DNA of 64,000 nt from an uncultured Acidobacteriota bacterium (GCA_913043225.1 CAJWLU010000001.1:288001-352000), one strand, 5' to 3'. Counted from the first letter of the stretch, positions 20,905 to 47,128 are shown. A program made the numbers and translations. The notes: generated by a model not told the origin, from the letters alone.

Positions 20905-20971
20905 CCTGTCGACCGACCGGTTGGGTGCACGACATCAGGATGCGCGGATGGGCCGCGCGGGGAAGGACTCC

Positions 20972-25326: not shown

Positions 25327-25335
25327 CGAGTGACC

Positions 25336-25839: not shown

Positions 25840-25841
25840 GC

Positions 25842-26363
25842 ATGACTGGAATGAGAGCGCTCGTCGGTCACGGACTCCGCGCGGGAATGCTCGTCGTCCT
25901 GGCGACCGCCATGGCCTCGGCGCAGCCGGCCATCATGCGAAACATGTGGGAAGGCCCGGTCGTGCTGCCCGGGACAGACCCGCGCGCCCCGGTTGAGGAC
26001 ACCATTGCCGTGGACGGGGTCCGTCTCCGCGACCGGATCGAATCGCAAGATCTTCCGAATCCGCTCGAGCCCACTCCTGACGTGCTGGCGGACGGAGAGC
26101 AACTCTACGGCACCTATTGCGCGGTGTGCCACGGCCAGGCCGGCCAGGGCGATGGCCAGATCGCCAGCCATTTTCGTCGGATGCCCGACCTGCGGCTGCC
26201 GCACATCCAAGAGAACTACACCGACGGCTGGATCTACGCCATCATCCGCGAGGGTGGCTTCAACATGCCTCCGCTCGCCTCACAGCTCAGCCCCGAGGAA
26301 CGGTGGGCGGTCGTGCTCTACGTGAAGTCGTTCGAGACCGTCCGGCCCCAGAGACGCCAATGA
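25842..26363 (+). CDS. actE: alternative complex III monoheme cytochrome c subunit E
   Basis: GEQLYGTYCAVCHG, distal MP, ERWAVVLYV; position after actD. Confidence 0.87.
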   Translation: MTGMRALVGHGLRAGMLVVLATAMASAQPAIMRNMWEGPVVLPGTDPRAPVEDTIAVDGVRLRDRIESQDLPNPLEPTPDVLADGEQLYGTYCAVCHGQAGQGDGQIASHFRRMPDLRLPHIQENYTDGWIYAIIREGGFNMPPLASQLSPEERWAVVLYVKSFETVRPQRRQ

Positions 26364-31211: not shown

Positions 31212-32810
31212 ATGCCGACCCTGAGCCAGTGCACCTGCTGCGCCGCCCTTGTCACGCTGCTACTGAGCGCACCGATTGCCATCGCACAGGATCCGCCCGA
31301 GTTACCGGAGCAGTATCGCGATCCGATCGACCTGATGGCCGAAGTGCTCGGCACCTACGCCTTCGAGATCTCCTCGGAGTCCGCCGAGGCGCAAGACTTC
31401 TTCAACCAGGGGATGCAACTGATGTTCGCCTTTGCCAAGGCGGACGCGGTACGGTCGTTCCGTGAGGCGTGGAAGCGGGATCCAAACTGCGCCATCTGCT
31501 ACTGGGGCGAGGCGTGGGCCTGGGGCTCGTATCTGAACGGGCCAATGCGACCGCCCGAGGCACCGCACGCCTACTCCGCCGCACAGCAGGCTAGACGGCT
31601 GTCAGAAGTGCACGCCAACGCGAAAGAGCGGGCCTACATCGATGCGCTGTCGGTGCGCTATGTCGAGAACTTCGAAGTCGACAAACGGCGCGATCAGGAC
31701 GAGGCCTACGCCGAAGCGATGCGACTACTGGTGGACCGGTTCCCGGACGACCTCGACGCGACCACGCTCTATGGCGATGCGCTCTTTCTGCTGGAGCCCA
31801 GGCGTGGCACCCGCGACCTCAACGACCCCAGGGTTCAGCGACTGCATGCGGTGCTCGAGAGCGTGCTCGAACGGGACATCAAACATCCCGGCGCCTGTCA
31901 CCTCTATATCCACGCCACCGAGTCGACCTCACGACCGGACAAGGCCGAGGCCTGTGCGGAGCATCTTGGGCTGGCCATCCCCGGAGCAAGCCATATCAAC
32001 CACATGCCGTCGCACACCTGGAACGAGGTGGGCCGTTGGGGTGATGGCGTCCGCTCGAACCTGCGCGCCTGGCACTCGGACCAGATGTCCGAGTTCGGAA
32101 CCGGGATCGCCATTTACCCAACCCACAACCTGCACATGCTGCTCTTCGCCGCGTCGATGGACGGGCAAGGCGCGATCGCCATCCAGGCAGGCAAGGATTT
32201 CCACAAGCTGACCGGCAACAGCGTGCATCATGCCCTAACCCTAATCCGCTTCGGAAGATTCGACGAAGTCCTCAAGGTTACCGAGCGCCCTGACAGTGAG
32301 GTGGCCGGCGGGCTGTGGGACTTCGCGCAGGGCTACGCGCACCTGCGTGAGGGCGACGTCGACTTCGCGGAGGTCTATCTGAATCGGGTGAAGGAGCTAG
32401 CGGCGACCTCTGAGGCGCAGATGCGGTTCCACCCGGCAGAGACCCTGCTCGGCGTAGCCGCAGGCATCCTCGAGGGCGAGCTCCATCGTGAGGCAAGCGA
32501 CCTGAACGCCGCCGAATCCGCGTTTGAGCAAGCCGTTGAGCTTGAGGACAGCCTGGCCTACGACGAACCTGAGCCGCTGCCCTTTGCCGCCAGACACTGG
32601 CTGGGGGCGCTCCTCCTCGAACGGGAACGATGGGCCGAGGCGGAGCAGGTGTTCAGAGCTGAGCTCGATGACCACCCCCACAACGGGTGGTCCCTGTTCG
32701 GCCTGAAGACGGCGATCGAAGCCCAGGGTCGCACCGACGCCGACGTGGATGCCGACCTCGAACAGAGCTGGGCGCGCGCCGACACCTGGCTGTACACGCC
32801 GCGTTATTGA
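31212..32810 (+). CDS. secreted TPR-repeat protein
   Basis: Signal peptide; AQDFFNQG, HPGACHLYIH, HMPSH, PHNGWSLFGL; helical repeats. Confidence 0.85.
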   Translation: MPTLSQCTCCAALVTLLLSAPIAIAQDPPELPEQYRDPIDLMAEVLGTYAFEISSESAEAQDFFNQGMQLMFAFAKADAVRSFREAWKRDPNCAICYWGEAWAWGSYLNGPMRPPEAPHAYSAAQQARRLSEVHANAKERAYIDALSVRYVENFEVDKRRDQDEAYAEAMRLLVDRFPDDLDATTLYGDALFLLEPRRGTRDLNDPRVQRLHAVLESVLERDIKHPGACHLYIHATESTSRPDKAEACAEHLGLAIPGASHINHMPSHTWNEVGRWGDGVRSNLRAWHSDQMSEFGTGIAIYPTHNLHMLLFAASMDGQGAIAIQAGKDFHKLTGNSVHHALTLIRFGRFDEVLKVTERPDSEVAGGLWDFAQGYAHLREGDVDFAEVYLNRVKELAATSEAQMRFHPAETLLGVAAGILEGELHREASDLNAAESAFEQAVELEDSLAYDEPEPLPFAARHWLGALLLERERWAEAEQVFRAELDDHPHNGWSLFGLKTAIEAQGRTDADVDADLEQSWARADTWLYTPRY

Positions 32811-33961
32811 GACACACCGAAGTCGAGGGGACGACCACGCCAGGTGCTCGTCTTCAGCTCCAGCACGTGGCGATCGGGATCACGCAAATAGAGACTGCGA
32901 CCTCCCTCCGGCCAGTCGACTACGCTCTCGATCTCGATACCCGCGTCGTGAAGACGCGACCGCCAGCGGTCCAGATCGGCCGGGCGGATACCGAACGCTA
33001 GATGCTGCTGCCCGCGACCGTCCGAGGACGGAATCGTTCCATGTGGCGTCACCGTCGGTTCGACCGACGCGCCCTGCTTGAATAACAGCAGCACTTGATT
33101 CTCGGCCACGTCGAGGGCCGCCATCCGCTCCATCGGCTCCATCGCGCGGGTGAAGCCCAGCACGCGCTGATAGAACTCAACCGACCGACCGAGATCGGCG
33201 ACGTAAAGCGCCGTCTCGGTCACCGCAACTACCTTCTCCTCGGCTGCCAGAGCCCGCTTCTCTGCCTGCTCCTCCTCACGCACGCGCGTGAGCGCGGACG
33301 CGATGAGCCCGGTCGGCACCGCCACCACCCCCAGCCCCGCCATCAGAACCAGGAACGTGAACATACGCCCGCCCGCCGTCACGGGGAAGGCGTCTCCGTA
33401 GCCGACTGTAGTTAGGGTGACCACCGCCCACCAGAGACTGTCGAAGACCGACGCAAATGTCTCCGGCTGAGCGGCGTTCTCGAAGTAATGGATGCCCACC
33501 GCGGACAGATAGATGAGCACCATGGCGGTGCCCAGAAAGGCGATCAGTTCCTCGCGCACGAGGACGGCAGCCCGTCGGAACCTAGCCATCGCGTCGCCGT
33601 AGCGGGCCAGTTTGAGGATGCGGGCCAGACGGAACAGCCGCAGCGCGCGGATCGAACGCAAGTCGACCCCCAGCGCCACATAGAACGGCAAGATCGCCAG
33701 CAAGTCGACCACGCCGAAGAAGCTGAAGACGAACGTGAGCTTCCGGTCCGCCACCAGTAACCGGAGCAGATATTCAATGGTAAACACGACCACCGAGAAC
33801 ACTTCCAGGCGGCGAAGGAGTTCTAGGGTCTCCGGTGACAGATCCGGCAGGGTCTCGATCGAGAACGCGGCAATGGTGAGAAGGATGACCCCCACCACGA
33901 CGGCGTCGAAGAGACGACCGGCGAAGGTATCGGTATCCTCGACGATGCGCTTCAGACTCAC
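32804..33961 (-). CDS. voltage-gated-type potassium channel (6TM) fused to a C-terminal VOC/glyoxalase domain
   Basis: S4 LRSIRALRLFRLARILK; filter TTVGYGD; then with no stop ETALYVADL...HLAF...SLYLRDPDRHVLEL. GTG 33961 lies 6 nt after TACACT. Confidence 0.88.
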   Translation of the reverse strand: MSLKRIVEDTDTFAGRLFDAVVVGVILLTIAAFSIETLPDLSPETLELLRRLEVFSVVVFTIEYLLRLLVADRKLTFVFSFFGVVDLLAILPFYVALGVDLRSIRALRLFRLARILKLARYGDAMARFRRAAVLVREELIAFLGTAMVLIYLSAVGIHYFENAAQPETFASVFDSLWWAVVTLTTVGYGDAFPVTAGGRMFTFLVLMAGLGVVAVPTGLIASALTRVREEEQAEKRALAAEEKVVAVTETALYVADLGRSVEFYQRVLGFTRAMEPMERMAALDVAENQVLLLFKQGASVEPTVTPHGTIPSSDGRGQQHLAFGIRPADLDRWRSRLHDAGIEIESVVDWPEGGRSLYLRDPDRHVLELKTSTWRGRPLDFGVSQ

Positions 33962-34010
33962 GCCGGAAGTGTATCGCGGGCAAGCTGGCCCGAGACGCGA
34001 ACGGAGGGGA

Positions 34011-35099
34011 TCAATACAGGAGCATGGCGACGACAAACATCAGGATGGCCAGCATCACCACCCACTGCCAGACCTCCTGCTTATCGTCGGACGGGATGAG
34101 CTGGAACGAGATACTGCGGTGGCTGTCGACCACGTTGCGGAGGAAGTTGGCTGATTCGAGCTGCTGGCTGTCCATAGAAAAGGTGCGCCCGCCAGTGCGC
34201 TGCACCACCATGTTGATGCCATCCTGCTCCAGCCGGGTCCGCTGCCCGTCGAGGTCGGCCTCCAACGTCTCGTCATAGTCGACACCACGAATGTAGTCGA
34301 GCAGCACGGTGTCCACGTTGACCCCAGTCCGGCTCCCGATCCCGATCGGGTAGATCGCGAGCCCCCGGCGGTTGAACTCACCGAGAGCGATATCCAGACG
34401 GCTCCGCTGTTCGGCGTCGATCAGAAAGTCTCCGTCGGTGAACAGCAGGACCAGACGGTCGCTCCGCTCCTCGGGCTGCCAGTCGTCCTCACCCGACTCG
34501 AACCGATCCTGATTGTCGAGCGACAGATAGATCGACTCGAACGCGGTCGCGATGTCGCTGTCCCAGGGAAACGCATCGCCAGACAGTGTCAACGGCGGAC
34601 CGATCCGCCCCACCTCTTCCACGAACCGTTCAGCGTTGGACGACAGGTGGACCCGACGTAGTGCCGTGGTGCCCCAAACGAACACGGCGGTACGGTCGCC
34701 CGGCGTCAGCAGGTCTTGCGTGTACAGACTCAGCGCCTCCCGCACGGCGAGGTCGAGTCGCGATGGACCAAGGTCCTTGACCCACATGGAGGCCGAGGCG
34801 TCGACCGCCACGATGACGTCCACGTCGCCCCGCTTGAAGCTCGACGCACCGTAGACCCAGAACGGCCTCGCGGCGGCCACCGCCACGAGCGTGAGTGCTG
34901 CAATCGCGAAGAACCAGAACTTAATGTGACCGAACAGGGGGTAGTTCGACCCTTCGCTGCGGGCCGGTCTCAATTGCAAGCGGAGCGCAAAGACGACCAG
35001 TCCGAAGGCCAGCAGCAGCCCAGCGATCGGCACGATAGCCAGATACTCCGGGTTGGCGAACTCGACACTGTCCCGGAACAGGCTGGTGATGGCGTCCAC
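34011..35099 (-). CDS. vWA domain membrane protein (MxaL/BatB-like)
   Basis: N-terminal TM pair, MIDAS VDASASM, LFTDGD, C-terminal TM; last gene of the moxR module. Confidence 0.8.
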   Translation of the reverse strand: MDAITSLFRDSVEFANPEYLAIVPIAGLLLAFGLVVFALRLQLRPARSEGSNYPLFGHIKFWFFAIAALTLVAVAAARPFWVYGASSFKRGDVDVIVAVDASASMWVKDLGPSRLDLAVREALSLYTQDLLTPGDRTAVFVWGTTALRRVHLSSNAERFVEEVGRIGPPLTLSGDAFPWDSDIATAFESIYLSLDNQDRFESGEDDWQPEERSDRLVLLFTDGDFLIDAEQRSRLDIALGEFNRRGLAIYPIGIGSRTGVNVDTVLLDYIRGVDYDETLEADLDGQRTRLEQDGINMVVQRTGGRTFSMDSQQLESANFLRNVVDSHRSISFQLIPSDDKQEVWQWVVMLAILMFVVAMLLY

Positions 35100-35134
35100 C
35101 GCTCGGCTTCCTCAGACTGCAGTCCGTCTCAAGG

Positions 35135-35800
35135 TCAGCCGCGGCGGCGGCGGACCGGGGTGCCCTCGCCCTTCATCTGCTCGAGCTCGGGCGGCTCGAT
35201 CTCGCGGGGCGCCTCAAGGGCCCGACGCACCGCCTCGGGGTTGCTGGTCAAGTCGTAGTTCCACTTGTAGTCGAACCGGTCGGTGAGGTCGCTCCGGAGC
35301 GCCCGCTCGTAGTCCGGGTTGATGGTCTCCATCACCTCCACGATGATGGCTTCCTTGAGACGCGCGGCATCCGGGTCTTCACCGTCGATGGCGCGATAGC
35401 GCTCCCGTGCCAGCAGGAACTTCGCGTTCGCGAGCAGATGCGACGCCCGCGCATCGTCCACTTCATCAGACAGATCGTCCACGACCGTCTGGAGGTCGCC
35501 AGTCAGATAGCTGTAAGACGCCTGCTGCAAGAAAGCATCCTGAAAGAGATAGGAGTCAACCAGCTGCTGGACACCCCAGGCGCGGCTCCCTTCGTAGAAC
35601 GCTGACACCTCGGCGAGTTGCTGCTCGGCGGTCTCGTAGTCGGCGCGCTGCACGCTATCGCTGAGCCCCTCCAGGTTGTCGTAGAACACAGCCAGGCTGC
35701 GGGACGGCACCCACACGGCGACGAAGAACGCCACCGCCAGCACGAGGCCGATGAGATAACGGAAGGAATGTTCCTTGTCGAGCAGGTCTGTCAGTCGCAT
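35135..35800 (-). CDS. MxaK-like membrane-anchored helical/TPR protein
   Basis: One N-terminal TM; YERALR...DYKWNYDL resembles the MxaK/BatC C-terminal motif; position between two vWA genes. Confidence 0.6.
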   Translation of the reverse strand: MRLTDLLDKEHSFRYLIGLVLAVAFFVAVWVPSRSLAVFYDNLEGLSDSVQRADYETAEQQLAEVSAFYEGSRAWGVQQLVDSYLFQDAFLQQASYSYLTGDLQTVVDDLSDEVDDARASHLLANAKFLLARERYRAIDGEDPDAARLKEAIIVEVMETINPDYERALRSDLTDRFDYKWNYDLTSNPEAVRRALEAPREIEPPELEQMKGEGTPVRRRRG

Positions 35801-35846
35801 GTCGTCTGTTCAGGACCGGCCGCTGAGCCGGCCTGACTCCTCGATT

Positions 35847-36977
35847 CTAGGGGGTCGTCCCCCAGAGCAGCTCCGAAACGAATCCGAGCGGTATCCCGAC
35901 TACCAGTAGTCCCATAGCCACGAGTAGGAATCTGGAATAGATGGGCACTCTCAGAGCACGGTGCTTCAGTTCGACCCGCACCGCTTCACGCTCGTCGATC
36001 GCCTGGTAAGCGCGCAGCAGGCTGTCCTCGCTGGTGACGTCGAAGTAGTCGCCGCCATACTCCTGAATCTGGGCCACCAGCTGCGGCACACTCGGATTCA
36101 GGAAGCTCGCGGTACGGGCATCACTCGTGTTGATGTAGATCAAATACGGGACGATGTTGCGCTTGCTAAGCTCTTCGAACTCCGCATCCGGGAACTCGTC
36201 GACCGCGGCATCGGTGATGATGAGCACGGCACGATTCTGATTCCGTCCGCGCCCTTGAACCGCTTCGTCCCGGTCAAAGTGCTTCACGATGTCCTGCAGC
36301 GGCCGGATGATGTTGGTGTCCCCTTCGGCGGGAATAATCCGCACCTTGTCCCGCGGCACCACCATCGCCTTATCGAGCCGCTGGGTCATCACATACGGCG
36401 CATCCCAGACCTGGTAGTAGTAGAGCTCGTCGTCCATGACGAAGTCATCCACCATGTAGGGATAGGTCGAGAACAACCAGAGCGACACACGGTCGTTCTT
36501 CTCACGACGCATCTCGAGAAACTCGAGGTGCGCGTCTCGAGCCACCTCGGCCTTCGACTTGTTCGTATCAGGGAACTCCCATGCCATCGAACCCGACGTG
36601 TCGACGAGATCGATCCGCACACGCGACTCGACCGACCCACTCACTTCCTCAGTCGCAGTAAGAAACGGATCGGCCACCGAGACGACGAGCATGACGAGCG
36701 CAGCTGCGAGCAAGACCTTCGGCGCCGTGTGCAGCACGCGGACCCAAAGCCGTTTCCGGTGCCTCGCCTCGATGAGATGGCCAGAGTGCTGTCGCGCATG
36801 CCGCTTGCGGGTCGAGGCTAGCCGCACCAGCGTCAGAGCGAGAACCACACCGACCGCCACCGCCAGCGCCACGGCCATACCGACATCGCCGTACCGCACT
36901 TGGGCATAGTCGGTCTCGAGCAGCTCGCGAAAGCCGCTATCGAGGAAGGCGACCAGCTCGTTCCATGGCATCAACAT
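35847..36977 (-). CDS. vWA domain membrane protein (MxaC/BatA-like)
   Basis: MIDAS VDTSGSM, DRVSLWLFS, LIITD, AIDERE, TM segments at both ends. Confidence 0.82.
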   Translation of the reverse strand: MLMPWNELVAFLDSGFRELLETDYAQVRYGDVGMAVALAVAVGVVLALTLVRLASTRKRHARQHSGHLIEARHRKRLWVRVLHTAPKVLLAAALVMLVVSVADPFLTATEEVSGSVESRVRIDLVDTSGSMAWEFPDTNKSKAEVARDAHLEFLEMRREKNDRVSLWLFSTYPYMVDDFVMDDELYYYQVWDAPYVMTQRLDKAMVVPRDKVRIIPAEGDTNIIRPLQDIVKHFDRDEAVQGRGRNQNRAVLIITDAAVDEFPDAEFEELSKRNIVPYLIYINTSDARTASFLNPSVPQLVAQIQEYGGDYFDVTSEDSLLRAYQAIDEREAVRVELKHRALRVPIYSRFLLVAMGLLVVGIPLGFVSELLWGTTP

Positions 36978-36993
36978 GAGATCGCTCGCAGGT

Positions 36994-38088
36994 CTAGCCG
37001 CCGAACATGCCCTTCACCGAGTTGAGCAGCCGGACGTGCGGCCGCAGGTCGGCGAGGGCTCCCGAGATTGCGTCCGCGTCGGCCGACGGGTTGTCGACCG
37101 ACGGCGCGCCTAACTCCAATCCTCGCTGGTACGTCACCAGGAAGTCGGTGAGCACGGCCAGTGCCTCCTTACGGTGGCCATCATCGAGACCGGCCACGAA
37201 CCGCTGGATGCCGAGCGCCGTGTCCCCCGAATTGAGGTCCGACAGGTCGGCCTGCAGGTAGTCGCGAAGCGCCAACACCAACCCTCGCTGGACCTCGCGG
37301 ACTCGGTCCCCTTCGGCGCCGGACGGCAGATCCTGCAACCCCCCCAGCGCCCGGCCCACGGCCCGCCGCGCCTCCCAGATCGATGGCTGGATCGGAATCT
37401 GCGCCTCGATCTGGGCAAGCTCGTCCTCTTCCTGCTGCTTCTCGACCGACAAACCCTTCGGCTTGCGGGCCAAGCGAACCAGCATGACGAGCCAGAGCAC
37501 CAGCGGCAGCGGCGCGACGGTCCAGGCCATTGTCCGGAAGAAGGTCGCTTGATTGGCGAAGCTGCCCAGCTCGATCGTGTCGCGGATGTCGAGCAGTGGC
37601 TCGTCGGTCACCGAGGTGACATACCGCACTAGCCCCTGTCCACCGTCCACCTGCTGCACCTCGGCGTCCTCGATATCTTCACCGAGGTCGCGCACCAGGT
37701 AGTAGAAGCTGAAGTTCGGGAGCACGTAGGTCATCTTGTTCGGGTCAACCAGCCTGAACCCGTAGATGAAGTCCCAGATGTGCTCGTCCTCGACGCGGGT
37801 CTTCTCCACCGTCAGCGAAACGCCCTCGAAGGGATGCACCGGCAGGGTCTCTGGTGCCACCCGATCCTCCAGCACGATGATCTCCTGCCCATCGTCGATC
37901 AGGTCGGGGAACCGCACCCGATACCGCTGGGTGATGAGGTCGCCGGTCTTCACCACCGTCGGTTCCAGCTCGAGCGTCTCGACCCGCACCGGGCCCATGG
38001 GCGCATCGATCGCGTCAGGCGGCTGGGCCAGCAGGCTGGTCGGAAGCAACAGAGCGAAGGCAAGTGCGAACGCCGACGTGCGTGTCAT
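36994..38088 (-). CDS. MxaA/BatD-like exported protein with one TM segment
   Basis: Signal peptide; GDLITQR motif; beta-rich domain, TM, helical tail; position after DUF58. The start could be 38115. Confidence 0.6.
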   Translation of the reverse strand: MTRTSAFALAFALLLPTSLLAQPPDAIDAPMGPVRVETLELEPTVVKTGDLITQRYRVRFPDLIDDGQEIIVLEDRVAPETLPVHPFEGVSLTVEKTRVEDEHIWDFIYGFRLVDPNKMTYVLPNFSFYYLVRDLGEDIEDAEVQQVDGGQGLVRYVTSVTDEPLLDIRDTIELGSFANQATFFRTMAWTVAPLPLVLWLVMLVRLARKPKGLSVEKQQEEDELAQIEAQIPIQPSIWEARRAVGRALGGLQDLPSGAEGDRVREVQRGLVLALRDYLQADLSDLNSGDTALGIQRFVAGLDDGHRKEALAVLTDFLVTYQRGLELGAPSVDNPSADADAISGALADLRPHVRLLNSVKGMFGG

Positions 38089-38126
38089 GTTCACCGGTTG
38101 TCCATCCCTGGTCATCGATGTCCGAT

Positions 38127-39044
38127 CTAGCGAGCCGTGCGAGAAATCAGGAACTTGGGCAACTCCTCGATGTGGTTCTCTGGCGTCAGCACGACCGAGT
38201 CGATCCCCGCCCAATACTTCAACTTGTATTGCAGCGTTTCGCGTGACTCCTCGATCCGACGACGGATCGCTCCAGCCTTCCTGGCAGAGATCACCGTCTG
38301 TTTGCCGGTCTCCATATCCGAGATCCGGATGTAACCCAGGCGGCTCTTGACCGAGAACTCCTCGGGGTCGTCCAGAATGAGCACGATCATATCGTGCTTC
38401 GCCGCCACGGTGCTGAGGAGCTTGAAGTCGATTGCGTCGTGGTCGTTGACGAGATCGACCAGGTCGGTGAGCACCACGACCGAGTGCCGCATCTTCAGTC
38501 TAGCCAGCATGAAATCGATGGCCACCTTGAGATTCGCCGGACGCCGCGACGGGAACTCCCGCTCGAGCTTCAGCTTCTCGAAGATCTGATGCGCCATGTA
38601 AAAGACCTGCGAGCTGCCCATCTTGGGCTTCATGTAGAGCTCGATCCGATCCGAGTAGCCGAGCAACCCGACCGGGTCACGCACGTTGGACCGGGTCAAC
38701 CCGATGTTGCCCAGCAGATCCAACATCAACAGTGCCTTGTTGGACCGTTGGGATACCTGAAACAGCGTCGAGTAGGAGAGGTCGCAGATGATGAGCGTCC
38801 GCATCTCCTTGGGCTCCATCCGCTCGATCCGGAACAGCTTCTCCGGATACGTGCGCATGCTCAGGTTCCAGGCCACGTCCTTGAGTGGCTGGCCCGGCCG
38901 CCACTGATCGACGCCGACGATGTCGTAGCCGGCCCCCTTGAACCCGCTCTTGTGCTCGCCGAAGTGGATGCTCGTGGAGGGCTTGCGCGCTCGGATCCCG
39001 TGCTTGATGTCACGAAACCTGGCGTAGACCTCCTCTACTTCCAA
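38127..39044 (-). CDS. DUF58 family protein (MxaS-like)
   Basis: GEHKSGFKGAGYD, WRPG..LKDVAW, DLSYST, ISDMETG; overlaps the moxR 3' end. Confidence 0.88.
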   Translation of the reverse strand: MEVEEVYARFRDIKHGIRARKPSTSIHFGEHKSGFKGAGYDIVGVDQWRPGQPLKDVAWNLSMRTYPEKLFRIERMEPKEMRTLIICDLSYSTLFQVSQRSNKALLMLDLLGNIGLTRSNVRDPVGLLGYSDRIELYMKPKMGSSQVFYMAHQIFEKLKLEREFPSRRPANLKVAIDFMLARLKMRHSVVVLTDLVDLVNDHDAIDFKLLSTVAAKHDMIVLILDDPEEFSVKSRLGYIRISDMETGKQTVISARKAGAIRRRIEESRETLQYKLKYWAGIDSVVLTPENHIEELPKFLISRTAR

Positions 39045-40150
39045 GGAGGAACCTCCATGTCGCGGACGATCTGTTGCAAGAGTTCGTCCTTGTCGACGGA
39101 GAACTCCATACCTTCGCGCAGGACCAGCCGGTGGGCGAGCACCGGCCCCGCGACCTCCTTAATGTGATCCGGCGTGACCTGCAGGTCGCCGTTGAAGAAG
39201 GCGAACGTCCGCGCCACGGCCTCAAGGTGAAAATGGACACGAGGCGAGATCCCGACGCGGATATACTCCTTCACCGCCCGGGCGGCCCGTCCCTGGACCC
39301 GATGGGGACGCGTGTTCCGGATGAGCCGGACCTTGTACTGCGCCCCGTATTCAGACATCGTGACGTTGTCGTAGATATAACGGGCAATATCGAGCACCTC
39401 GTAAAGATCGGTCAGCTTCTCGACCTTCCGTCCCACGACGTTGCCGGCGGTGATGTTGTACTCGTCCTCTTCCCTCTCCGGGTCCATCATATTGATGGAG
39501 ATGGTGGTGCGGTCGAGCTGCGCGACAGGGTTGGCGAAGGTGCCTTCTTCCTCGCCGAAGATATTCTCGGTGCAAATGACCATGAAGAACCGGGGTCCCG
39601 TGATGTCACTGAAGTCACAGGACAGCGGGAAGAGGGGCAAGACCTTACCCTCGGCCAGGTTCCCGTAGTCCGAGCTAAGAGTGGCCGAGCTCTCCTCCAT
39701 GCCCTCGAGCACGGCCGCCTTGGTTTTGCCTGACAACCGGTTGTCCTCGTCAATGAGGACGATGTGGGCCATCAGCTTGCCCGGTTTGAAGACGAGCTTG
39801 CGGCTGCCGTCGGTCTCCTCGACGATCGTCTCGTAGCCGAGGATGTCCTCGGGCATGTAGGTCGGCAGCCCCTGGATCCGTTCGAACTTCGCGTCGATCG
39901 CCATGGCGCAGGCGCTAACCAGGTCGGTCTTCCCGGTGCCGGTCGGCCCCCTGAACATGACGTGCGGCTGCCTGAGCAGCTTGCTCTGGCTAAGCTTGTC
40001 CGTGTAGGGGAGCAGCGTAAAGAACGCCCAGGACAGGATGCGCGCGGCATCGTCGAGACCATAGAGCCACTTGGTCGACTCCTTCTGGAACCGCTGGACC
40101 ACTTCATTGGCGCGGTCGAAGTCGATAGTGCGTGTCGGTTGAACGGCCAT
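39035..40150 (-). CDS. moxR: MoxR family AAA+ ATPase (divergent)
   Basis: Walker A GPTGTGKT, RIQG..MPEDILG, Walker B IDEDNR, AQLDR, GISPR, VLAHRL; SD GAGAGG before ATG 40150. Confidence 0.9.
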   Translation of the reverse strand: MAVQPTRTIDFDRANEVVQRFQKESTKWLYGLDDAARILSWAFFTLLPYTDKLSQSKLLRQPHVMFRGPTGTGKTDLVSACAMAIDAKFERIQGLPTYMPEDILGYETIVEETDGSRKLVFKPGKLMAHIVLIDEDNRLSGKTKAAVLEGMEESSATLSSDYGNLAEGKVLPLFPLSCDFSDITGPRFFMVICTENIFGEEEGTFANPVAQLDRTTISINMMDPEREEDEYNITAGNVVGRKVEKLTDLYEVLDIARYIYDNVTMSEYGAQYKVRLIRNTRPHRVQGRAARAVKEYIRVGISPRVHFHLEAVARTFAFFNGDLQVTPDHIKEVAGPVLAHRLVLREGMEFSVDKDELLQQIVRDMEVPPWK

Positions 40151-40282
40151 GTAATCCTCTCGCGCTCCGGGCGCCTCGAACATGGCAGGCGGCCGCTCGC
40201 ACGACCGGCCCCTGCCGGCGGTAAGTGTGGCCGCGTGCGACCACACCGTCAAGATAGGTATTGGGTGTCCGACACCGGGTGC

Positions 40283-42643
40283 CTAGCGGGGGCCCCCACC
40301 CACGGTGAAGCCGACATAGAACTCACGCCCCGGCGACGGCTCGAAGTAGCGGCCACCCCATGCGTTGGTAATCCCCGAAGAGTTGTAGCGCTCATCGAAG
40401 ATGTTGTCGAAGCCGACGAACGGCCGCACATCGACGTCACCGATCTGCGCGTCCCAGCCGAAGCGGAGGTCGACTACCGTATAGGCCCAGTTGAACACCG
40501 TGTTGGCGTTGTTCAGAGCGTAGTCGTCGTTCCAGCGCACGGTCGCGCCAGAGCGCAAACCGAAGGGCGCGGTGTAGTTGAACCCTGCGAATAAACGGTG
40601 GGGCACCGCACCCGGCTCGAGCATGCCGGAGAAGTCGTTCCCCTCGGGCGTGAAGTTCTCGAACACGAAGTCCTGATAGGTGTAGGCGACGCGAACGTCG
40701 AAGCTAGAGGTCGGCACCCAGTCAAGCGCCAGTTCGAACCCGTCGCGCGAGGTCTCTCCGGCGTTGCGGAAAAACGTTTCTTCGGTGATCGGGCTCTGGA
40801 ACGGCACCAGGGCACTATCGACGGTCGAGAAATAAACGGCCACCTCGTAGCGAAGCCGAGCCGCCTCGGCGAGACCGCGGACACCCACCTCGAAGCTCTG
40901 GAGATCCTGCGGCTCCAGATTCTGGTTGAATCCCCCCGAGCCGTCCTCGGTGTTCGACAGCTCGACGGTGGTCGGCGTCTCGTAGGCGGTCGAGAAGTTC
41001 CCGAACAAGTTCACCCCGGGCGCAGCAGCGAACGTAATGCCCACCGAGGGGCTCACCGCATTCATGGTGCGCTCGCCAGACTGGTCGCCATCGTCCAGCT
41101 TCCGGTCTCCGGCCTGGAAATCGTAGTAGTCCCAGCGCACGCCGGCACTGAGGCGGACCCGGTCTGTCGGCGAGATGCCGATCTGGGCGAACGGACCGGC
41201 CGACATTACTTCCTCGGTCTGGTCCACGAGCAGACTGCCGCTGGTAGCTCGCCCCCCGGCTGTAGTCGGCGCGACCTGCCTAAACTCCATTCGGTCGTCG
41301 TTCTGTGAGGCCACGTCGAGGCCGGCAGCCCAATCGATGCCGGTGCCGCCGCGTTGCGTGCTGCCGATGTACTCGGAACGGAACCCGAATCCGTTCCGAC
41401 CGAGGTCGACGTTCCGAAACGCACCGACGGCGCCCAGATCCCGCCACATGCCCCAACCAGTGGCACGAAACACCTGGGTTCCGCTCAGCCGGTGCTCGAG
41501 GGTGATGCCGCCTTGTCCCTGGGTCGCGGCCTCGCCCCAGTTCCGAGACGCGGCGACGCCTCGGGCCAAACACGCGCCAGACAGGCAGTTTCCGTCGCTA
41601 CCGCGGACCGGATCCCCGCGCGCATCAGACTCGTTAAGGAAACTCGGACTCTCGGCAAAAGGCGAATCGTAGAGGTTGAAGATGCCCCGGATTTCGGTGT
41701 CGGCGCCTAGTTCATGCCGCATGACGAAATTGGCCTGTGTAATCTCGGCCGCGCCATTGTCCCGAAAACCGTCAGTTCCAAAACGGCTGGCACTCAACAT
41801 GAACTGCGTACTCGCGCTGCCGCCGTCGACCCGCAGTTGCTGGCGGTTGTAGCCATAGCTACCGAACTGTACGTCGGGGCGAATGGTCAGGGCCCTCGAC
41901 TCGTCAAACGTGGTCTGTAGATTGATCACGCCGCCCGCCGCGTTGCCATAGAGTACCGAGCTCGGCCCACGGATGACGTCGATCCGGCCCACCGACCCGA
42001 GGTCCACGTTGCCCGGCTCAGTCGTCCCGTCCGCGGTCGTGATCGGAATGCCGTCCTGGATGATCGCCACCCCGCGTAGGCCGAAGCGAGGCTGCGGAGC
42101 GCGGATGCTGAGTCCAATGCCCCCAGACAACCCGTAGTTGCGACGGTTCTGCACGTAGAGCCCGGGAATACCGCGGAGCGCCTCGTCGAGCGACGATCGG
42201 CGCTGAGCAAACTCGATCTGGTCCCTGGACACGACGGCAACTGAATTCGGGACGCCTGAGAGATCCTGGTCGGTCCGGGTAACAATGACCGTCTCATCAA
42301 GCGGCGCCAGCCCGAGGGTCATATCGACCGTCACGGCCACGTTTGCCACGGTCGTGGGCTGCTCTTCGCTCCCGAACCCAGGCAGCACGCCCCGCACGGC
42401 ATAGGTACCGGCCGGCAGATTCAGGATCTCGTAGCGGCCAAGACCGTCGCTCACACCCAAGTGGACCGATCCAGTCGAGGTCGCGGTCGCCGTCACGGTG
42501 ACCCCGGGCAGCACGGCGCCGCTCTCGTCACGCGTGACTCCTTCGATTCGTCCTGACTGCGCAGCTACCTCTGAGACCAACACAACAACCAGCAGCATGG
42601 CCACCCATGCCCCCAACTTCAACAAGTGCCAAACGGTACTCAT
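40283..42643 (-). CDS. TonB-dependent receptor, YncD/PqqU-like
   Basis: Plug PGLYVQNRRNY...FGLRG...DGIP.T.ADG...RGPSSVLYGNAAGGVI; AYETPT..EL; C-terminal GRYFEPSPGR; N-terminal carboxypeptidase-regulatory-like domain. Start 42643 or 42598. Confidence 0.9.
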   Translation of the reverse strand: MSTVWHLLKLGAWVAMLLVVVLVSEVAAQSGRIEGVTRDESGAVLPGVTVTATATSTGSVHLGVSDGLGRYEILNLPAGTYAVRGVLPGFGSEEQPTTVANVAVTVDMTLGLAPLDETVIVTRTDQDLSGVPNSVAVVSRDQIEFAQRRSSLDEALRGIPGLYVQNRRNYGLSGGIGLSIRAPQPRFGLRGVAIIQDGIPITTADGTTEPGNVDLGSVGRIDVIRGPSSVLYGNAAGGVINLQTTFDESRALTIRPDVQFGSYGYNRQQLRVDGGSASTQFMLSASRFGTDGFRDNGAAEITQANFVMRHELGADTEIRGIFNLYDSPFAESPSFLNESDARGDPVRGSDGNCLSGACLARGVAASRNWGEAATQGQGGITLEHRLSGTQVFRATGWGMWRDLGAVGAFRNVDLGRNGFGFRSEYIGSTQRGGTGIDWAAGLDVASQNDDRMEFRQVAPTTAGGRATSGSLLVDQTEEVMSAGPFAQIGISPTDRVRLSAGVRWDYYDFQAGDRKLDDGDQSGERTMNAVSPSVGITFAAAPGVNLFGNFSTAYETPTTVELSNTEDGSGGFNQNLEPQDLQSFEVGVRGLAEAARLRYEVAVYFSTVDSALVPFQSPITEETFFRNAGETSRDGFELALDWVPTSSFDVRVAYTYQDFVFENFTPEGNDFSGMLEPGAVPHRLFAGFNYTAPFGLRSGATVRWNDDYALNNANTVFNWAYTVVDLRFGWDAQIGDVDVRPFVGFDNIFDERYNSSGITNAWGGRYFEPSPGREFYVGFTVGGGPR

Positions 42644-42804
42644 TTTCACGAATCCCCCCCCCCAAATTATTTTCGATACACGCATGCACCGACGGCATCC
42701 TCGAAAAACAAACACCGACGGAACACGGGCCTTGATCGAAGCACTCCTCGAAGCCCCTTGTGTCGTACTCTTCCGAGCAACTCAACTACCTACCAGCAGA
42801 CCGG

Positions 42805-44991
42805 TCAGTTCGCCAGCGGGTCGGGACGCATCTGGAACTTCACGATGCCCGGCTTCACGCCCTGGCCACCCTCGATATGCCAGGTTGCCGCTTCGCCGTA
42901 GGTGGCCCACAAGCCACGTCCCTTCCAGCCGGCGTCTGGATCATCAATCCGACCATCGAGCCCACGAGTGAAGAACCCTTGCGGGTACGGCACCCGGAGG
43001 ACAGTCCACTCACCGGAGTCAGGATCAAGAGCCAGCAACGAGTCGGAGTTGGAGCCGGTCGCAATCGGCACGTCGGCACCCAGGCCAAGGACATTCCACT
43101 GGTCCACCCAGTTGTAGTAGTGGAAGTCAGCTCGCACCGGTGGGTCGGTGCCCGCAATGATCGGGCCCGGCGTTTCATAGAGGGTCCATCCTTCGACACA
43201 GTGCCTCCCCTGGGACGTCTCTGGCCCGTTGTGCACCTCGCACTTCGTGCGGTCGAAGCTGGCCAGATGGCTACTTCCGGACAACGCCGTCCAGATCACG
43301 CCATCGCGGTCTATGTCGACACCCCGCGCCCCGAAGCCCCGCTTCTCGGGCGGCACGCTCGAGTCGAATACCGAAGGCACCTCGAAGATCTCAGTCGCGC
43401 ACGTCTCCGGCGGATTGTCGCCGATGTCGAGACGCGCCAGCGTACCGGGGAACCGATTGGCGCTAATCCACACCACCCGATCGTCGGTCGGATCGCCGAT
43501 GACCCCGTAGCTCCCCACGATCACGCGGGTATCGAGGCTCAGGTCGGGCGTGGCCTCCTGGCCGCGTCGCGCCGGCTCATTCCACGGCTTGGTGATACGG
43601 CCATCGCCATTGGTGTCGATGACCGTGGGGCACCAACCCTGCGACGCGCGCTCGTCACCCGTCTCATCGTAGAGCTTGGTGTCAATCCAGCCGACGACCT
43701 GACCGCCGCCGCTGAAATACAGCGTGTCGTTCTCGTCCTCGGCAAACTGAAGATGGTGGGTCCCGAAGCAGGTGTCCACCATGACGAACTTCTGAGTCGG
43801 CGGGTCGTAGTACACGGCTGAGCGGAACCCGTTGTCGAGCGGGAAGTACTGGGCGAACGCGTTGTCCGACCCCTCGCGGCAATAGTCCGGATTCGCGCGA
43901 TTTCGGATCGCCGAGGTCATCCAGACCCGCCCCTTCTGGTCCATCATCGGATTGTGTGGGTTGGCTGGGTCGTTCCAGATGAGTTCATCGCCAAAGAAGC
44001 GCGATGGCACGGGCATCGACTGGGCGATCATGCCGGGCACCGTGGCCGGATCGACCCGCAACGGCACCTTCAGATTCGTGGCTAGGTGCGTGGTCGGGTC
44101 GAGCATGGTCAGCTCATCGTTCGAGATGTTGACGCCGTAGATCGGCCCATTGGCGTTGACCTGCGGATTCCGCTTGTCGGTGGCGATCTCGTCGTGGACG
44201 TAGTCGATCTCAGTACCCCACTCCCACATCGAGATAACGACGTTGCGTTCGATTCCCTGGGGACGCGGCGGTGCGCTCGGAACCGCACCTGACGCGATAC
44301 GCTCGCTCCAGTCGGCGAACATCTGCAGCCCGCGCTGACGACCGAAGCGATTCATGGCGTTGGTCATCTGCGAGCCGCGCTGCCCCATCTGCACCCGGTG
44401 GTCCCAGGCGGCCAAGGTGGAGTCGAACTGGTCGAGGTTGTCGATCTCGCGGATGATGCGGTTCCCCAGCTGGTGACAGAGCATGCAGCCCTGCTTCTGG
44501 ATGTCGACCCACTGCTCCTGGTGCTCGAGCGTGGCAGCGATGCCGTTCCCGTCGTCGCCTGTACCGGGAAACTCTCTCGCCAACGGCGGCTGGATCAGCG
44601 AATACCAGTAGTTGGCCGGGTAAACGCGGGCAGCATCGACCGGATCGGTAGCGACCGTGACCTCAAGCTCAATGCTGTCCCCGGGCGATGCAGTGACGCC
44701 CGCCGAATCGAGTAGCCCGTAGCCACGGACCCACACCTTGTAGCTGGCCGCCGGAAGCTCGGGGATCAGGAAACGACCACCGTCGGTGGTCACCACGCTC
44801 TTGATGAGCTTCGTGGGGAGGTCGGTGGTCTCGGCGATGACCCAGACGCCCGCTTCGGGCCCCAGGGAACTGGTCACCGTACCGGCGATGTCCCCTTCCG
44901 CCGCCCGACCGGGTACGCTAGCCCACACCAACGAGAGACCGACGAGCGCCGACGTCGCCAGCGCTCCAGCGATACGATTCGTTTTCGTCAT
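42805..44991 (-). CDS. large secreted heme-c protein of unknown function; paralog of 17906-20107
   Basis: Signal peptide; GPEAGVWVIAET; CMLCH at 44473-44487; HDEI, PHNPM, DTCFGTHHLQF, DTNGDG, FHYY; ends RPDPLA like its paralog. Confidence 0.88.
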   Translation of the reverse strand: MTKTNRIAGALATSALVGLSLVWASVPGRAAEGDIAGTVTSSLGPEAGVWVIAETTDLPTKLIKSVVTTDGGRFLIPELPAASYKVWVRGYGLLDSAGVTASPGDSIELEVTVATDPVDAARVYPANYWYSLIQPPLAREFPGTGDDGNGIAATLEHQEQWVDIQKQGCMLCHQLGNRIIREIDNLDQFDSTLAAWDHRVQMGQRGSQMTNAMNRFGRQRGLQMFADWSERIASGAVPSAPPRPQGIERNVVISMWEWGTEIDYVHDEIATDKRNPQVNANGPIYGVNISNDELTMLDPTTHLATNLKVPLRVDPATVPGMIAQSMPVPSRFFGDELIWNDPANPHNPMMDQKGRVWMTSAIRNRANPDYCREGSDNAFAQYFPLDNGFRSAVYYDPPTQKFVMVDTCFGTHHLQFAEDENDTLYFSGGGQVVGWIDTKLYDETGDERASQGWCPTVIDTNGDGRITKPWNEPARRGQEATPDLSLDTRVIVGSYGVIGDPTDDRVVWISANRFPGTLARLDIGDNPPETCATEIFEVPSVFDSSVPPEKRGFGARGVDIDRDGVIWTALSGSSHLASFDRTKCEVHNGPETSQGRHCVEGWTLYETPGPIIAGTDPPVRADFHYYNWVDQWNVLGLGADVPIATGSNSDSLLALDPDSGEWTVLRVPYPQGFFTRGLDGRIDDPDAGWKGRGLWATYGEAATWHIEGGQGVKPGIVKFQMRPDPLAN

Positions 44992-45038
44992 GGCGAACTC
45001 CCTCGTCCCTACCCCCAAGCGTCCTAGGTTCCGTGCCT

Positions 45039-45410
45039 CTACTTGCGTGAGGCGATCCAGTCTCCGGTGCCATACCAGGAGAAGCTTCCGCTCGCGCCCT
45101 GGATGAAGCCTCCGCTCACTTCGCCCTCGAAACTGATCGGCTGATCGCCGTCAAGGTCCGGTACGACCACAGTGAAGGTTAGTGCCGAACCGTCGAGGGT
45201 CCCGTCCACCGAAAGGATCTCTCGATCACCGATGTCGATCTCTCCGCCGATACCGGTGCCGTTCTGCTCGAACCGCGCCTGCCAAGTGGTCTCACCCGTC
45301 TGGGTCCGCAAGGTCATCTCCCACTCACCGGTGAGACCACCCTGACCCAACAACGGTGCACCAAGCACCGCGGTGGCCGCCAAGACGACCATCGCCAGAC
45401 GTTGGACCAT
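45039..45410 (-). CDS. small secreted beta-rich protein
   Basis: SD GGAGGAG, signal peptide, LTGEW...LTFTV pattern; 47 nt upstream of the heme-c gene on the same strand. Confidence 0.75.
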   Translation of the reverse strand: MVQRLAMVVLAATAVLGAPLLGQGGLTGEWEMTLRTQTGETTWQARFEQNGTGIGGEIDIGDREILSVDGTLDGSALTFTVVVPDLDGDQPISFEGEVSGGFIQGASGSFSWYGTGDWIASRK

Positions 45411-45443
45411 TGTCACTCCTCCACTTTGACAACGAAAACGGTC

Positions 45444-45472
45444 ATTCTATGCGTCACCCTGTTGAGGGTCAA
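45444..45472 (-). promoter_or_regulatory. putative sigma70 promoter for the 45410/44991 transcript
   Basis: Minus strand TTGACC-17 nt-TAGAAT, near consensus. Confidence 0.65.
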
Positions 45473-45619
45473 GAAGGCAAGCCTCTGTCGCTCAATAGAT
45501 TAGCCGTAGTTTGGCGGACGCTGGCGAGAGCTACTCGTCCACCCCAGGGGGCGGACGTCGAACCCGCGACGCCACGGCGCTTGACGCCGACCCGAATCCG
45601 AACGATCCTACGCGCCCCA

Positions 45620-47128
45620 ATGACGACAGAAACGACTGTTGCGAACGTTCCCTACTGGATCAACGGCCGTCAGGCGACCCCCAAAGACGCCCGGCGACTT
45701 CCGGTCACCGACTCGGCAACCGGCGAGGTGGTCCGTAAGGTCCCCTGCGCAGACGCCACCGACATCGACCTGGCGGTGGAAAGCGCAAAGGCGGCCTTCG
45801 CCGGCTGGCGCGCCACGCCTCCGTTACGGCGAGCGCGCATCCTCATGCGGTTCCGGGACCTCCTAGTACAGCACAAGAGCCAGATAGCCGCGGTCGTGAC
45901 CGAGGAACACGGCAAGACCCTCGAGGACGCCGAAGGCTCAGTGCAGCGCGGTCTCGAGGTGGTCGAGTTCGCCACCGGCATCCCGCACCTCCTCAAGGGC
46001 GAGCACTCGGAGGACGTGGGCGCCGGGATCGACTCGCACACCGTGCGACAGCCTCTCGGGGTGTGCGCCGGCATCACGCCATTTAACTTCCCGGTAATGT
46101 GCCCACTCTGGATGATTCCGGTTGCGCTGGCCTGCGGAAACACGTTCATCCTCAAGCCGTCTGAGAAAGACCCGTCGGCCAGTGTGATGCTCGCGCACCT
46201 GTTAAAGGAGGCTGGACTACCAGACGGCGTGCTAAATGTGGTTCAGGGTGACAAGGAGGCCGTGAACGCGCTGCTCCAGCATCCCGGCATCGCCGCAGTC
46301 TCCTTTGTTGGCTCGACCCCGATCGCCCGCCACGTCTACGAAACCGGAACGGCCGCGGGCAAGCGCGTGCAGGCGCTCGGCGGCGCCAAGAACCATGCAG
46401 TAGTACTCCCAGACGCCGACCTCGACGGAGCAGCAGATGCGCTGATCGGGGCCGGGTACGGTTCGGCCGGCGAGCGCTGCATGGCGATCTCGGCCATCGT
46501 GGCGGTCGGCGAAGCGGGCGACGCACTTGTGTCGAAGCTGTCCGAGCGTGCCCAGGCGCTCTCGGTCGGCCCTGGCGACCGAGAAGGCGTGCAGATGGGC
46601 CCGCTCATCACCGCCGAACACGCAGCCCGGGTCACGGGCTACATCGACACCGGCGCTGACGAAGGCGCCAAGGTGATTGTAGACGGGCGCGGTCTGGTCG
46701 TGGCCGGCCATGAAAAGGGACACTTCGTCGGCCCCACCCTGTTCGACCAGGTGACCGACGAGATGACGATCTACCGGGACGAGATCTTCGGTCCGGTGCT
46801 GGTCGTGCTGCGGACCGAGACCCTCGGCGAGGCGATCGACCTGATCAACCGGAACCCCTACGGGAACGGCACCGCAGTCTTTACCCGGTCGGGCGCCGCC
46901 GCGCGGCGGTTCGCCAATGAGATCCAGGTAGGCATGGTGGGCGTTAATGTTCCGATCCCGGTACCGATGGCGTTCTTCTCGTTCGGCGGCTGGAAGAGCT
47001 CGCTCTTCGGCGACCTCCACGTGCACGGTCCGGAGGGCGTAAAGTTCTACACCAGGACCAAGGTGGTCACGACTCGCTGGCCCGTCCATCAGGACGGGGT
47101 CAGCCTGACCATGCCGACCATGAAGTAG
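45620..47128 (+). CDS. mmsA: CoA-acylating (methyl)malonate-semialdehyde dehydrogenase
   Basis: Motifs ITPFNFP, KPSEKDP, SFVGST, GGAKNH, GSAGERCMA, GVNVPIPVP. ATG 45620 preferred. Confidence 0.94.
   Translation: MTTETTVANVPYWINGRQATPKDARRLPVTDSATGEVVRKVPCADATDIDLAVESAKAAFAGWRATPPLRRARILMRFRDLLVQHKSQIAAVVTEEHGKTLEDAEGSVQRGLEVVEFATGIPHLLKGEHSEDVGAGIDSHTVRQPLGVCAGITPFNFPVMCPLWMIPVALACGNTFILKPSEKDPSASVMLAHLLKEAGLPDGVLNVVQGDKEAVNALLQHPGIAAVSFVGSTPIARHVYETGTAAGKRVQALGGAKNHAVVLPDADLDGAADALIGAGYGSAGERCMAISAIVAVGEAGDALVSKLSERAQALSVGPGDREGVQMGPLITAEHAARVTGYIDTGADEGAKVIVDGRGLVVAGHEKGHFVGPTLFDQVTDEMTIYRDEIFGPVLVVLRTETLGEAIDLINRNPYGNGTAVFTRSGAAARRFANEIQVGMVGVNVPIPVPMAFFSFGGWKSSLFGDLHVHGPEGVKFYTRTKVVTTRWPVHQDGVSLTMPTMK

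Follow-up and report, generated by a model that had tools for sequence, protein, structure and literature searches.

We analyzed a stretch of 64,000 nt (the window, with positions counted from its first letter) from the genome of an Acidobacteriota bacterium (CAJWLU010000001.1:288001-352000), a 3.85-Mb assembly that is 96% complete and whose close relatives place it in a family within the Vicinamibacterales. The window contains nine co-directional genes on the minus strand, the last six of which form a cassette in the order MoxR-DUF58-A-vWA-K-vWA; as a tentative reading, this cassette may help to mature periplasmic enzymes that depend on pyrroloquinoline quinone (PQQ). Open reading frame (ORF) calls and scans with Pfam and NCBIfam confirmed the nine genes, their strand and their domains as an earlier note on this DNA had named them. 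In the order of transcription, the features of the locus are the following:

45444..45472, minus strand: candidate sigma70-type promoter, TTGACC-17-TAGAAT, from a motif scan
45039..45410, minus strand: small exported acidic protein of 123 aa with a signal peptide and without a Pfam or NCBIfam family
42805..44991, minus strand: exported heme-c protein of 728 aa with one CxxCH, from a fold model and conserved residues
40283..42643, minus strand: TonB-dependent receptor of 786 aa with the PqqU signature and an N-terminal prealbumin-like extension, from PDB and profile matches
39035..40150, minus strand: MoxR AAA+ ATPase of 371 aa, cytoplasmic, at the MxaR position (Pfam AAA_3 and AAA_lid_2)
38127..39044, minus strand: DUF58/vWA-like protein of 305 aa with a DxSxS motif, at the MxaS position (Pfam)
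36994..~38094, minus strand: exported protein of 364-366 aa with one transmembrane (TM) helix and a C-terminal helical region, at the MxaA position (sequence features)
35847..36977, minus strand: vWA protein with three TM helices (vWA1), 376 aa, with an intact metal ion-dependent adhesion site (MIDAS), at the MxaC/BatA position (Pfam, topology)
35135..35800, minus strand: membrane-anchored helical protein of 221 aa, at the MxaK position (sequence features)
34011..35099, minus strand: vWA protein with three TM helices (vWA2), 362 aa, with a MIDAS, at the MxaL/BatB position (Pfam, topology)
32804..33961, minus strand: voltage-gated-like K+ channel fused to a glyoxalase/VOC domain, a tenth co-directional gene

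Using the regions fetched around relatives of vWA1, we compared 80 loci, which were clustered by k-mers; the gene caller misses genes in low-GC loci, and counts rest on tblastn or hidden Markov model (HMM) calls where so stated. Each of the six cassette genes is present in 77-80 of the 80 loci, in an invariant order and with the misses located at contig ends, while the receptor is found at 56 of these loci, the small gene at 45 and the heme gene at 36. Our survey of the host family covers 94 genomes that are at least 85% complete; these genomes are kin, and the counts are not independent. Scored by its TM gene, the cassette is present in 92 of the 94 genomes. In a sample of the phylum, a vWA1 profile had matches at E<=1e-30 in 9 of 401 genomes, each belonging to the host family or to one sister family of the same order. 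The motifs on which activity would depend are conserved, with Walker A and B of MoxR, the DxSxS of the DUF58 protein and the vWA MIDAS each intact in 40/40 sequences. Both vWA domains are predicted to be periplasmic from hydropathy and a basic loop, and a periplasmic vWA domain has been reported for BB0173 of Borrelia (PMC5700661). An orphan vWA1 paralog, 58% identical and without other cassette genes, is also present (G000:C21:15831-16994), and 7 of 7 family genomes sampled contain a second vWA1 copy.

The steadiest neighbor of the cassette is the receptor: 70 of the 92 genomes with the cassette have an ortholog at a distance of 12 kb or less. It lies directly upstream of MoxR and on the same strand in 39 of the approximately 70 loci where an upstream gene is called, with gaps of -4 to 504 nt. 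The best PDB match of the receptor is PqqU of E. coli (9c4o/6v81), far ahead of any other, with an E-value of 1.7e-70 for the single sequence and 7.8e-101 for a profile. PqqU has been described as defined by Y/F/W99, R304 and R365 and as occurring in Vicinamibacteria, and replacement of its Lys274 by Glu has been proposed to allow Ca2+ or a lanthanide to be imported together with PQQ (all PMC12124388). F187 and R451 of the receptor align directly with Y99 and R365 in HMMER output, and F187, E371, R401 and R451 are invariant in 50 of 50 orthologs, so that the earlier suggestion of a PqqU-like receptor is supported, with the published signature present and one of its positions aligned by eye. 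The receptor differs from PqqU in its N-terminal extension, in the changes of K274 to E, Q84 to L and Q121 to E, and in having mostly lost R536; its score to the PqqU family model NF041535 is 287.4 bits against a cut-off of 1200, though this is the best of 26 families. Taken together, the matches and the residues suggest that the receptor is likely a PQQ importer.

The genes for PQQ biosynthesis also occur in this neighborhood. In the flanks of related loci pqqB, pqqC, pqqD and pqqE all score over their cut-offs, with pqq genes at 19 of the 80 loci and a receptor or a pqq gene at 71 of 80. In the family survey, pqqC scores over cut-off in 50 of 94 genomes, and of these 36 have it no more than 40 kb from the cassette, 6 have it far away and 8 on another contig. 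Within 12 kb of the cassette, pqqC is present in 20 of the 92 cassette genomes, and either the receptor or pqqC in 85 of 92; six of the remaining seven involve split contigs, and in the seventh, G111, pqqC lies 8 kb from the cassette but is split into two overlapping pieces (G111:C3:1879187-1879866). Ten of the genomes have no receptor ortholog, and of these seven have pqqC within 12 kb, two have it on another contig and one is G111 with its split copy; counting this copy, all 92 cassette genomes contain a receptor ortholog or pqqC. The arrangement in single genomes is informative. In G040, from the sister family, pqqB-C-D-E, all over cut-off, lie just upstream of the cassette with a MATE gene and are divergent from it, and the cassette, which holds the only AAA_3 match of that genome at E<=1e-15, has neither a receptor nor a heme gene beside it. 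In G021, pqqBCDE, the receptor, the cassette and a PQQ dehydrogenase share a strand and are interrupted by a single antisense gene. These observations differ from the paper that defined PqqU, where synteny with pqq genes is described as rare (PMC12124388): here the two are syntenic in some genomes, and members of the host family do encode pqqC.

The host genome itself contains no pqqB, pqqC or pqqD, and its best match to pqqE is 27% identical. Searched with an MxaF profile, it contains 80 PQQ-dehydrogenase-like ORFs, none of which is more than 35% identical to MxaF, and eight matches to TIGR03075 over the cut-off. The earlier note had found no mxaF/xoxF-type gene in the window, and this was upheld, with none of the best 150 of 153 TIGR03075 matches of the genome lying in the window. 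It had also pointed to the rest of the genome as the place to look for MxaF and pqq genes; neither MxaF nor pqqB, pqqC or pqqD was detected there, but the genome offers these 80 ORFs as candidate clients.

The order of the six genes, MoxR-DUF58-A-vWA-K-vWA, matches that of MxaRSACKL but is not diagnostic. We fetched mxa clusters with an mxaF primer, used 56 loci of at least 9 kb out of 80 listed, and compared profiles of 15-39 sequences using HH-suite. The resulting probabilities are 99 for MoxR with MxaR, 98 for the DUF58 protein with MxaS, 97 for vWA1 with MxaC, and 81 and 92 for vWA2 with MxaL and MxaC, respectively. The helical protein reaches only 39 with MxaK directly, but 91 with the K protein of a second cassette in the same genome, which itself reaches 96 with MxaK and shares a C-terminal motif; when 640 ORFs of mxa loci were searched with hmmsearch, the top matches to the helical protein were mostly proteins at the MxaK position, with weak E-values. 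The TM protein scores 12 with MxaA and 81 with the protein at the same position of the second cassette, which scores 1 with MxaA. The likeness to mxaRSACKL drawn in the earlier note thus stands for gene order and is extended to sequence homology at five of six positions, all but the A position. What does not stand is the use of this order as a pointer to methanol dehydrogenase, as the second cassette and other families share it. This second cassette (C20:13785-19848, L230) has the same MoxR-DUF58-A-vWA-K-vWA order and is of a type found in 21 of 401 genomes of the phylum and widespread in Vicinamibacterales. The TM protein, the K protein and the two vWA proteins of the first cassette have their closest relatives in it. 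PQQ-dehydrogenase-like ORFs occur in 6 of 17 regions fetched around cassettes of this second type, which is about the number expected by chance at a density of 80 in 3.85 Mb, and we did not count them.

Using these comparisons, the cassette can be set beside two known systems. It shares with MxaRSACKL the six-gene order, with MoxR and three vWA-type proteins, and profile homology that is direct for R, S, C and L and runs through an intermediate for K; it differs in that the methylotroph cluster contains mxaF and mxaJ, whereas here the neighbor is a PQQ importer or a set of pqq genes and not one enzyme. All six mxa genes are reported to be needed for insertion of Ca2+ into MxaFI (PMC12276312). 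Operons of the Bat/MoxR-proper type, such as BatI of Bacteroides and BB0170-0176 of Borrelia (PMC5700661), likewise encode MoxR, a DUF58 protein and two vWA proteins with three TM helices, but here the two vWA genes are separated by one of the K type and the cassette is very divergent; the score to the BatA model NF047508 is 20 against a cut-off of 380. The host genome also has a Bat-type operon of its own, on C10, which matches MoxR, the DUF58 protein and vWA2 of the cassette at HH-suite probabilities of 98-99, its BatB-like protein matching vWA2 at 98. In Bat operons adjacent batA and batB are followed by the TPR gene batC and by batD and batE; no BatD- or BatE-like genes follow the cassette in the window, and the downstream genes vary among loci. 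In a tree of 35 MoxR proteins those of this cassette form a clade on a very long branch, weakly joined to the second cassette (80/61). We conclude that the cassette resembles MxaRSACKL in its anatomy, with orthology a candidate relation.

The 728-aa protein was described in the earlier note as an uncharacterised heme-c protein that may be a (quino)hemoprotein or metallo-oxidoreductase, and the anatomy of a redox enzyme is borne out by a fold model and by conserved residues. An AlphaFold2 model built from 120 sequences (mean predicted local distance difference test score, pLDDT, 94.7) contains a prealbumin-like domain, a helical domain with the CxxCH, and a propeller. The top fold match of the propeller is virginiamycin B lyase, Vgb (PDB 2z2n, 2qc5), with Z 25.1 and a root-mean-square deviation of 2.5 over 289 of 293 residues, and with the next rows at about 21; the Vgb propeller presumably has seven blades, hence our description of the heme-protein propeller as seven-bladed. 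At 10% identity this shared fold shows no function, and the heme protein differs from Vgb in being exported and fused to prealbumin-like and heme-c domains. Among full-length sequences, C169 is conserved in 49 of 53, C172 in 49 of 52, H173 in 50 of 52 and M209 in 48 of 52, and H266, D267, H413, Y495, D622, Y625 and R676 are each at least 85% conserved (53 sequences). We infer from this pattern an electron-transfer heme c with His/Met ligation (H173/M209), and a second site, for a metal or a quinone, at the mouth of the propeller, where these residues may meet. Folded alone, residues 30-245 gave a pLDDT of 96 and matched just the prealbumin-like domain, so we make no claim on the fold of the heme domain; sequence searches against solved structures gave only weak matches, to the N-terminal domain. 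Type II quinohemoprotein alcohol dehydrogenases combine an eight-bladed PQQ propeller with a cytochrome c, and they are likewise periplasmic with a propeller and a single c-type heme. In our protein, by comparison, the heme domain is N-terminal to the propeller and the best matches are seven-bladed; the fold match to Vgb and the lack of any match to a PQQ-family HMM in Pfam or NCBIfam place it outside the eight-bladed PQQ (quinohemo)proteins.

The family to which this protein belongs is large: all 8000 candidates scored pass E<=1e-10, and 892 clusters at 50% identity pass E<=1e-30. We found no description of it in the literature, most subscription papers lying outside the search. The host genome contains nine copies, of which just one adjoins the cassette. 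A second copy in the window (17906-20107, minus strand) is 60% identical and divergent from an operon resembling alternative complex III (ACIII), and three paralogs (C36, C44, C46) adjoin Tat-like proteins resembling DUF1552/cytochrome modules.

The reading that we favor, to which we give somewhat less than an even chance, is that the locus is an operon for PQQ supply and metal loading, where a cassette behind a PQQ importer helps to mature the periplasmic repertoire of PQQ dehydrogenases. The receptor, with its PqqU signature, would import PQQ, perhaps together with a metal ion, and relatives without the receptor carry pqqBCDE beside the cassette. MoxR would hydrolyse ATP in the cytoplasm and act on its DUF58 vWA partner, as its intact motifs and its family suggest, and the four membrane proteins, by their predicted topology, would carry this work to the two periplasmic MIDAS domains. 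By homology with the part played by MxaRSACKL in the maturation of MxaF, these domains may then open folded apo-enzymes for the entry of Ca2+ or a lanthanide. The heme-c propeller protein would be a passenger, i.e., a periplasmic redox enzyme that is at most one of many clients.

A number of our own results weigh against this reading. ActC of ACIII is no more than 60 kb away in 63 of the 67 genomes where it shares a contig with the cassette, and scoB in 60 of 64; for pqqC the distance is at most 40 kb in 36 of 42 same-contig genomes. Since ActC and scoB are about as tightly linked as pqqC, the whole block is ancestral and the link to pqqC is not special on its own, which lowers the weight that we place on it; the link of pqq genes to the cassette may be one inherited event. 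The link to the receptor is tighter than that to ActC or scoB, and is co-directional, but in 23 loci the gene next before MoxR is HpaB-like and divergent, so that transcription of the cassette without the receptor is possible. Within the receptor, R401 and E371 were matched to R304 and K274 by eye, using an ungapped shift, and the HMMER alignment of this region is of low confidence. The number of dehydrogenases follows the presence of the cassette only loosely: in G030, at least 36 matches to PQQ dehydrogenases occur with no match to this cassette and with a cassette of the second type, and G014 keeps the cassette with just 3 PQQ-dehydrogenase matches at E<=1e-40. In addition, a D-x-D motif is present in 59 of the 80 ORFs that could be clients (a pattern of our own for the lanthanide type; 19 have no match), in comparison with D-x-A in 39 of 40 MxaF, and D-x-D has been predicted in a preprint to mark lanthanide use in clades resembling glucose dehydrogenase (10.64898/2026.07.10.737718); XoxF-type enzymes are said not to need the six mxa genes (PMC12276312). 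The kinship to MxaRSACKL is qualified as well. The Bat-type operon on C10 matches MxaR, MxaS, MxaC and MxaL better than this cassette does, a MoxR clade with MxaR is not joined in the tree, yet is not rejected (approximately unbiased test, p-AU 0.43), and 45 ORFs from the MxaJ position gave no tblastn match in the host genome. The 17 regions around second-type cassettes (16 of the type and one more divergent) contain no constant neighbor, no pqq gene and no receptor ortholog. With the evidence from neighborhoods weakened by ancestral synteny, the proposal is clearly framed but stays a hypothesis and demonstrates nothing as yet.

The same linkage of ActC and scoB, together with the presence of the ACIII-like operon in the window, would fit a somewhat unlikely alternative, namely that the cassette is a divergent, generic envelope chaperone of the Bat/MRP type, lying in a conserved block and serving a client unrelated to PQQ, such as ACIII or another respiratory or envelope complex. 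Its TM, K and vWA proteins being nearest to a second cassette without constant neighbors is consistent with this, and the MoxR/vWA pairs RavA-ViaA and NorQD are reported to act on respiratory complexes. Against it, ActC lies within 12 kb in just 11 of 92 genomes and on the opposite strand in the window, compared with 70 of 92 for the receptor; G014 and G016 keep receptor and cassette and have no ActC match at E<=1e-120; and all of the cassette genomes, with G111 and its split copy counted, contain a receptor ortholog or pqqC. It is very unlikely that the cassette instead serves the receptor, assembling or unloading it or passing on PQQ or metal, possibly through the small exported protein, with no remodelling of enzymes. 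The receptor and MoxR are adjacent and sometimes nearly abut, the small gene directly precedes the receptor in eight loci without a heme gene, and small periplasmic proteins that carry lanthanide as cargo have been proposed beside PqqU-like receptors (10.64898/2026.07.10.737718). However, 10 of the 92 cassette genomes, and G040 as well, have no receptor ortholog and keep the whole cassette, and the receptors of that preprint lack the PQQ residues that are present here, which argues against a lanthanide receptor with its cargo.

The remaining alternatives concern the heme protein, which the earlier note had placed where MxaF would be, as the dedicated client of the cassette. The gene is co-directional with the cassette behind the same candidate promoter; taking as orthologs those of the best 150 of 786 matches (down to 1019 bits) that score at least 1100 bits, the distance from such an ortholog to the cassette is at most 12 kb in 33 of 92 genomes. 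Among the 46 genomes with the two on a shared contig, it is at most 20 kb in 37, a count that favors a dedicated client. In nine genomes, however, an ortholog that is 75-80% identical lies more than 1.2 Mb from the cassette, 33 of 92 cassette genomes have no ortholog of at least 1100 bits among the matches listed, and the gene is missing from 44 of the 80 loci, as well as from the locus in G040, G014, G016, G013, G021 and G059. The last of these, 100% complete and on one contig, contains the receptor, the cassette and 38 PQQ-dehydrogenase matches without any member of the heme family at E<=1e-20, and largely refutes the proposal by itself. A complex prediction for the heme protein with the periplasmic domain of vWA1 scored 0.00, which says neither for nor against, and the fold is not that of an eight-bladed quinoprotein. 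Given its nine copies, an ortholog near the cassette in only a third or so of genomes, and a complete genome in which the cassette occurs without any member of the family, we conclude that the heme protein is not the dedicated client of the cassette, and consider the first proposal extremely improbable. Highly improbable, too, is the idea that the cassette matures the whole heme-c propeller family, whose propeller mouth would receive a metal or a quinone from it. These proteins have multiplied in the same lineage, with a member in 91 of 94 genomes of the host family and at least 11 in many; the conserved His, Asp, Tyr and Arg suggest a metal site, and orthologs of the heme protein lie near the cassette on many shared contigs. 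But G059 has the cassette and no member; of five genomes examined in other families, G034, G035 and G038 have members and no match to this cassette (G034 and G038 contain other RSACKL-type cassettes); and the heme family is spread far more widely than the cassette, with its 892 clusters against 9 of 401 phylum genomes. A bolder form of the reading that we favor, which we regard as quite unlikely, describes a loading line for PQQ and metal: a PqqU with the K-to-E change would import PQQ together with Ca2+ or a lanthanide, and a machine of the MxaRSACKL type would load dozens of quinoproteins, most of them of the lanthanide type, perhaps with the seven-bladed heme-c family as a further class of client.

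The nine genes are separated by 47, 161, 132, -10, 38, 16, 46 and 35 nt, in order. The near-consensus promoter claimed in the earlier note survives in part: TTGACC-17-TAGAAT, with one match in 16 kb against 2.5 expected, is not above chance by itself, and it is backed by relatives, where a similar site lies within 200 nt upstream of the ortholog of the first gene in 10 of 43 cases, compared with 2/36, 0/52, 0/73, 0/75 and 1/79 for five comparison genes in the same search. RNA from eight runs covered small shares of the region, four of them giving short contigs that are scattered over the genes and mostly 90-99% alike; among the contigs listed, none spans the heme-receptor or the receptor-MoxR gap. 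Found at 45 of 80 loci, the small gene is a variable member of the operon; its top Atlas matches are unnamed, an avidin-like cluster scores just 0.84, and the genome contains three weak paralogs. In 23 of 80 loci (e.g., L052:89-709) the small gene is preceded by a gene for a conserved 205-aa exported protein without an NCBIfam match, which in G014 comes directly before the receptor. The HpaB-like gene (resembling 4-hydroxyphenylacetate 3-monooxygenase, below cut-off) is inserted in antisense immediately ahead of MoxR in roughly one locus out of three (L089:5220-6650 and 27 others). Downstream, the K+ channel/VOC gene starts 49 nt past the cassette, with a channel homolog in just 6 of 80 related loci. 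Elsewhere in the window, the ACIII-like operon (20374-27604, plus strand) encodes a penta-heme cytochrome, a molybdopterin/FeS subunit, NrfD-like and further membrane subunits and a mono-heme protein, all named from sequence features, and a GSDH-family (soluble glucose/sorbosone dehydrogenase) domain fused to cytochrome c (50958-52616, minus strand) is a further likely PQQ enzyme. A search of positions 32000-47000 against Rfam gave no match, and tblastn of vWA1 in plasmids found nothing.

We found no description in the literature of a MoxR/vWA/DUF58 cassette with PQQ in Acidobacteria, or of this locus, most subscription papers lying beyond the search. What our analysis describes is a lineage-specific MoxR/vWA cassette of the MxaRSACKL/Bat type that appears to be coupled to PQQ supply. 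Since the receptor carries the K274E change of PqqU by nature, the proposed import of metal together with PQQ can be tested on it, and the very large family of heme-c propeller proteins appears to be an unstudied group. Were the loading line to prove true, the cassette would be an insertion machine for lanthanide-type quinoproteins, for which no chaperone was thought necessary, and the heme-c family could be periplasmic dehydrogenases with a His/Tyr/Arg-lined site for metal or PQQ wired to a His/Met heme, i.e., a third kind of PQQ/metal propeller beside the six- and eight-bladed ones. For a cassette of the MxaRSACKL/Bat kind, the set of approximately 80 PQQ-dehydrogenase genes in this bacterium provides a concrete candidate class of clients, and the assembly of MxaFI, already reconstituted in E. 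coli, provides a ready assay for the cassette.

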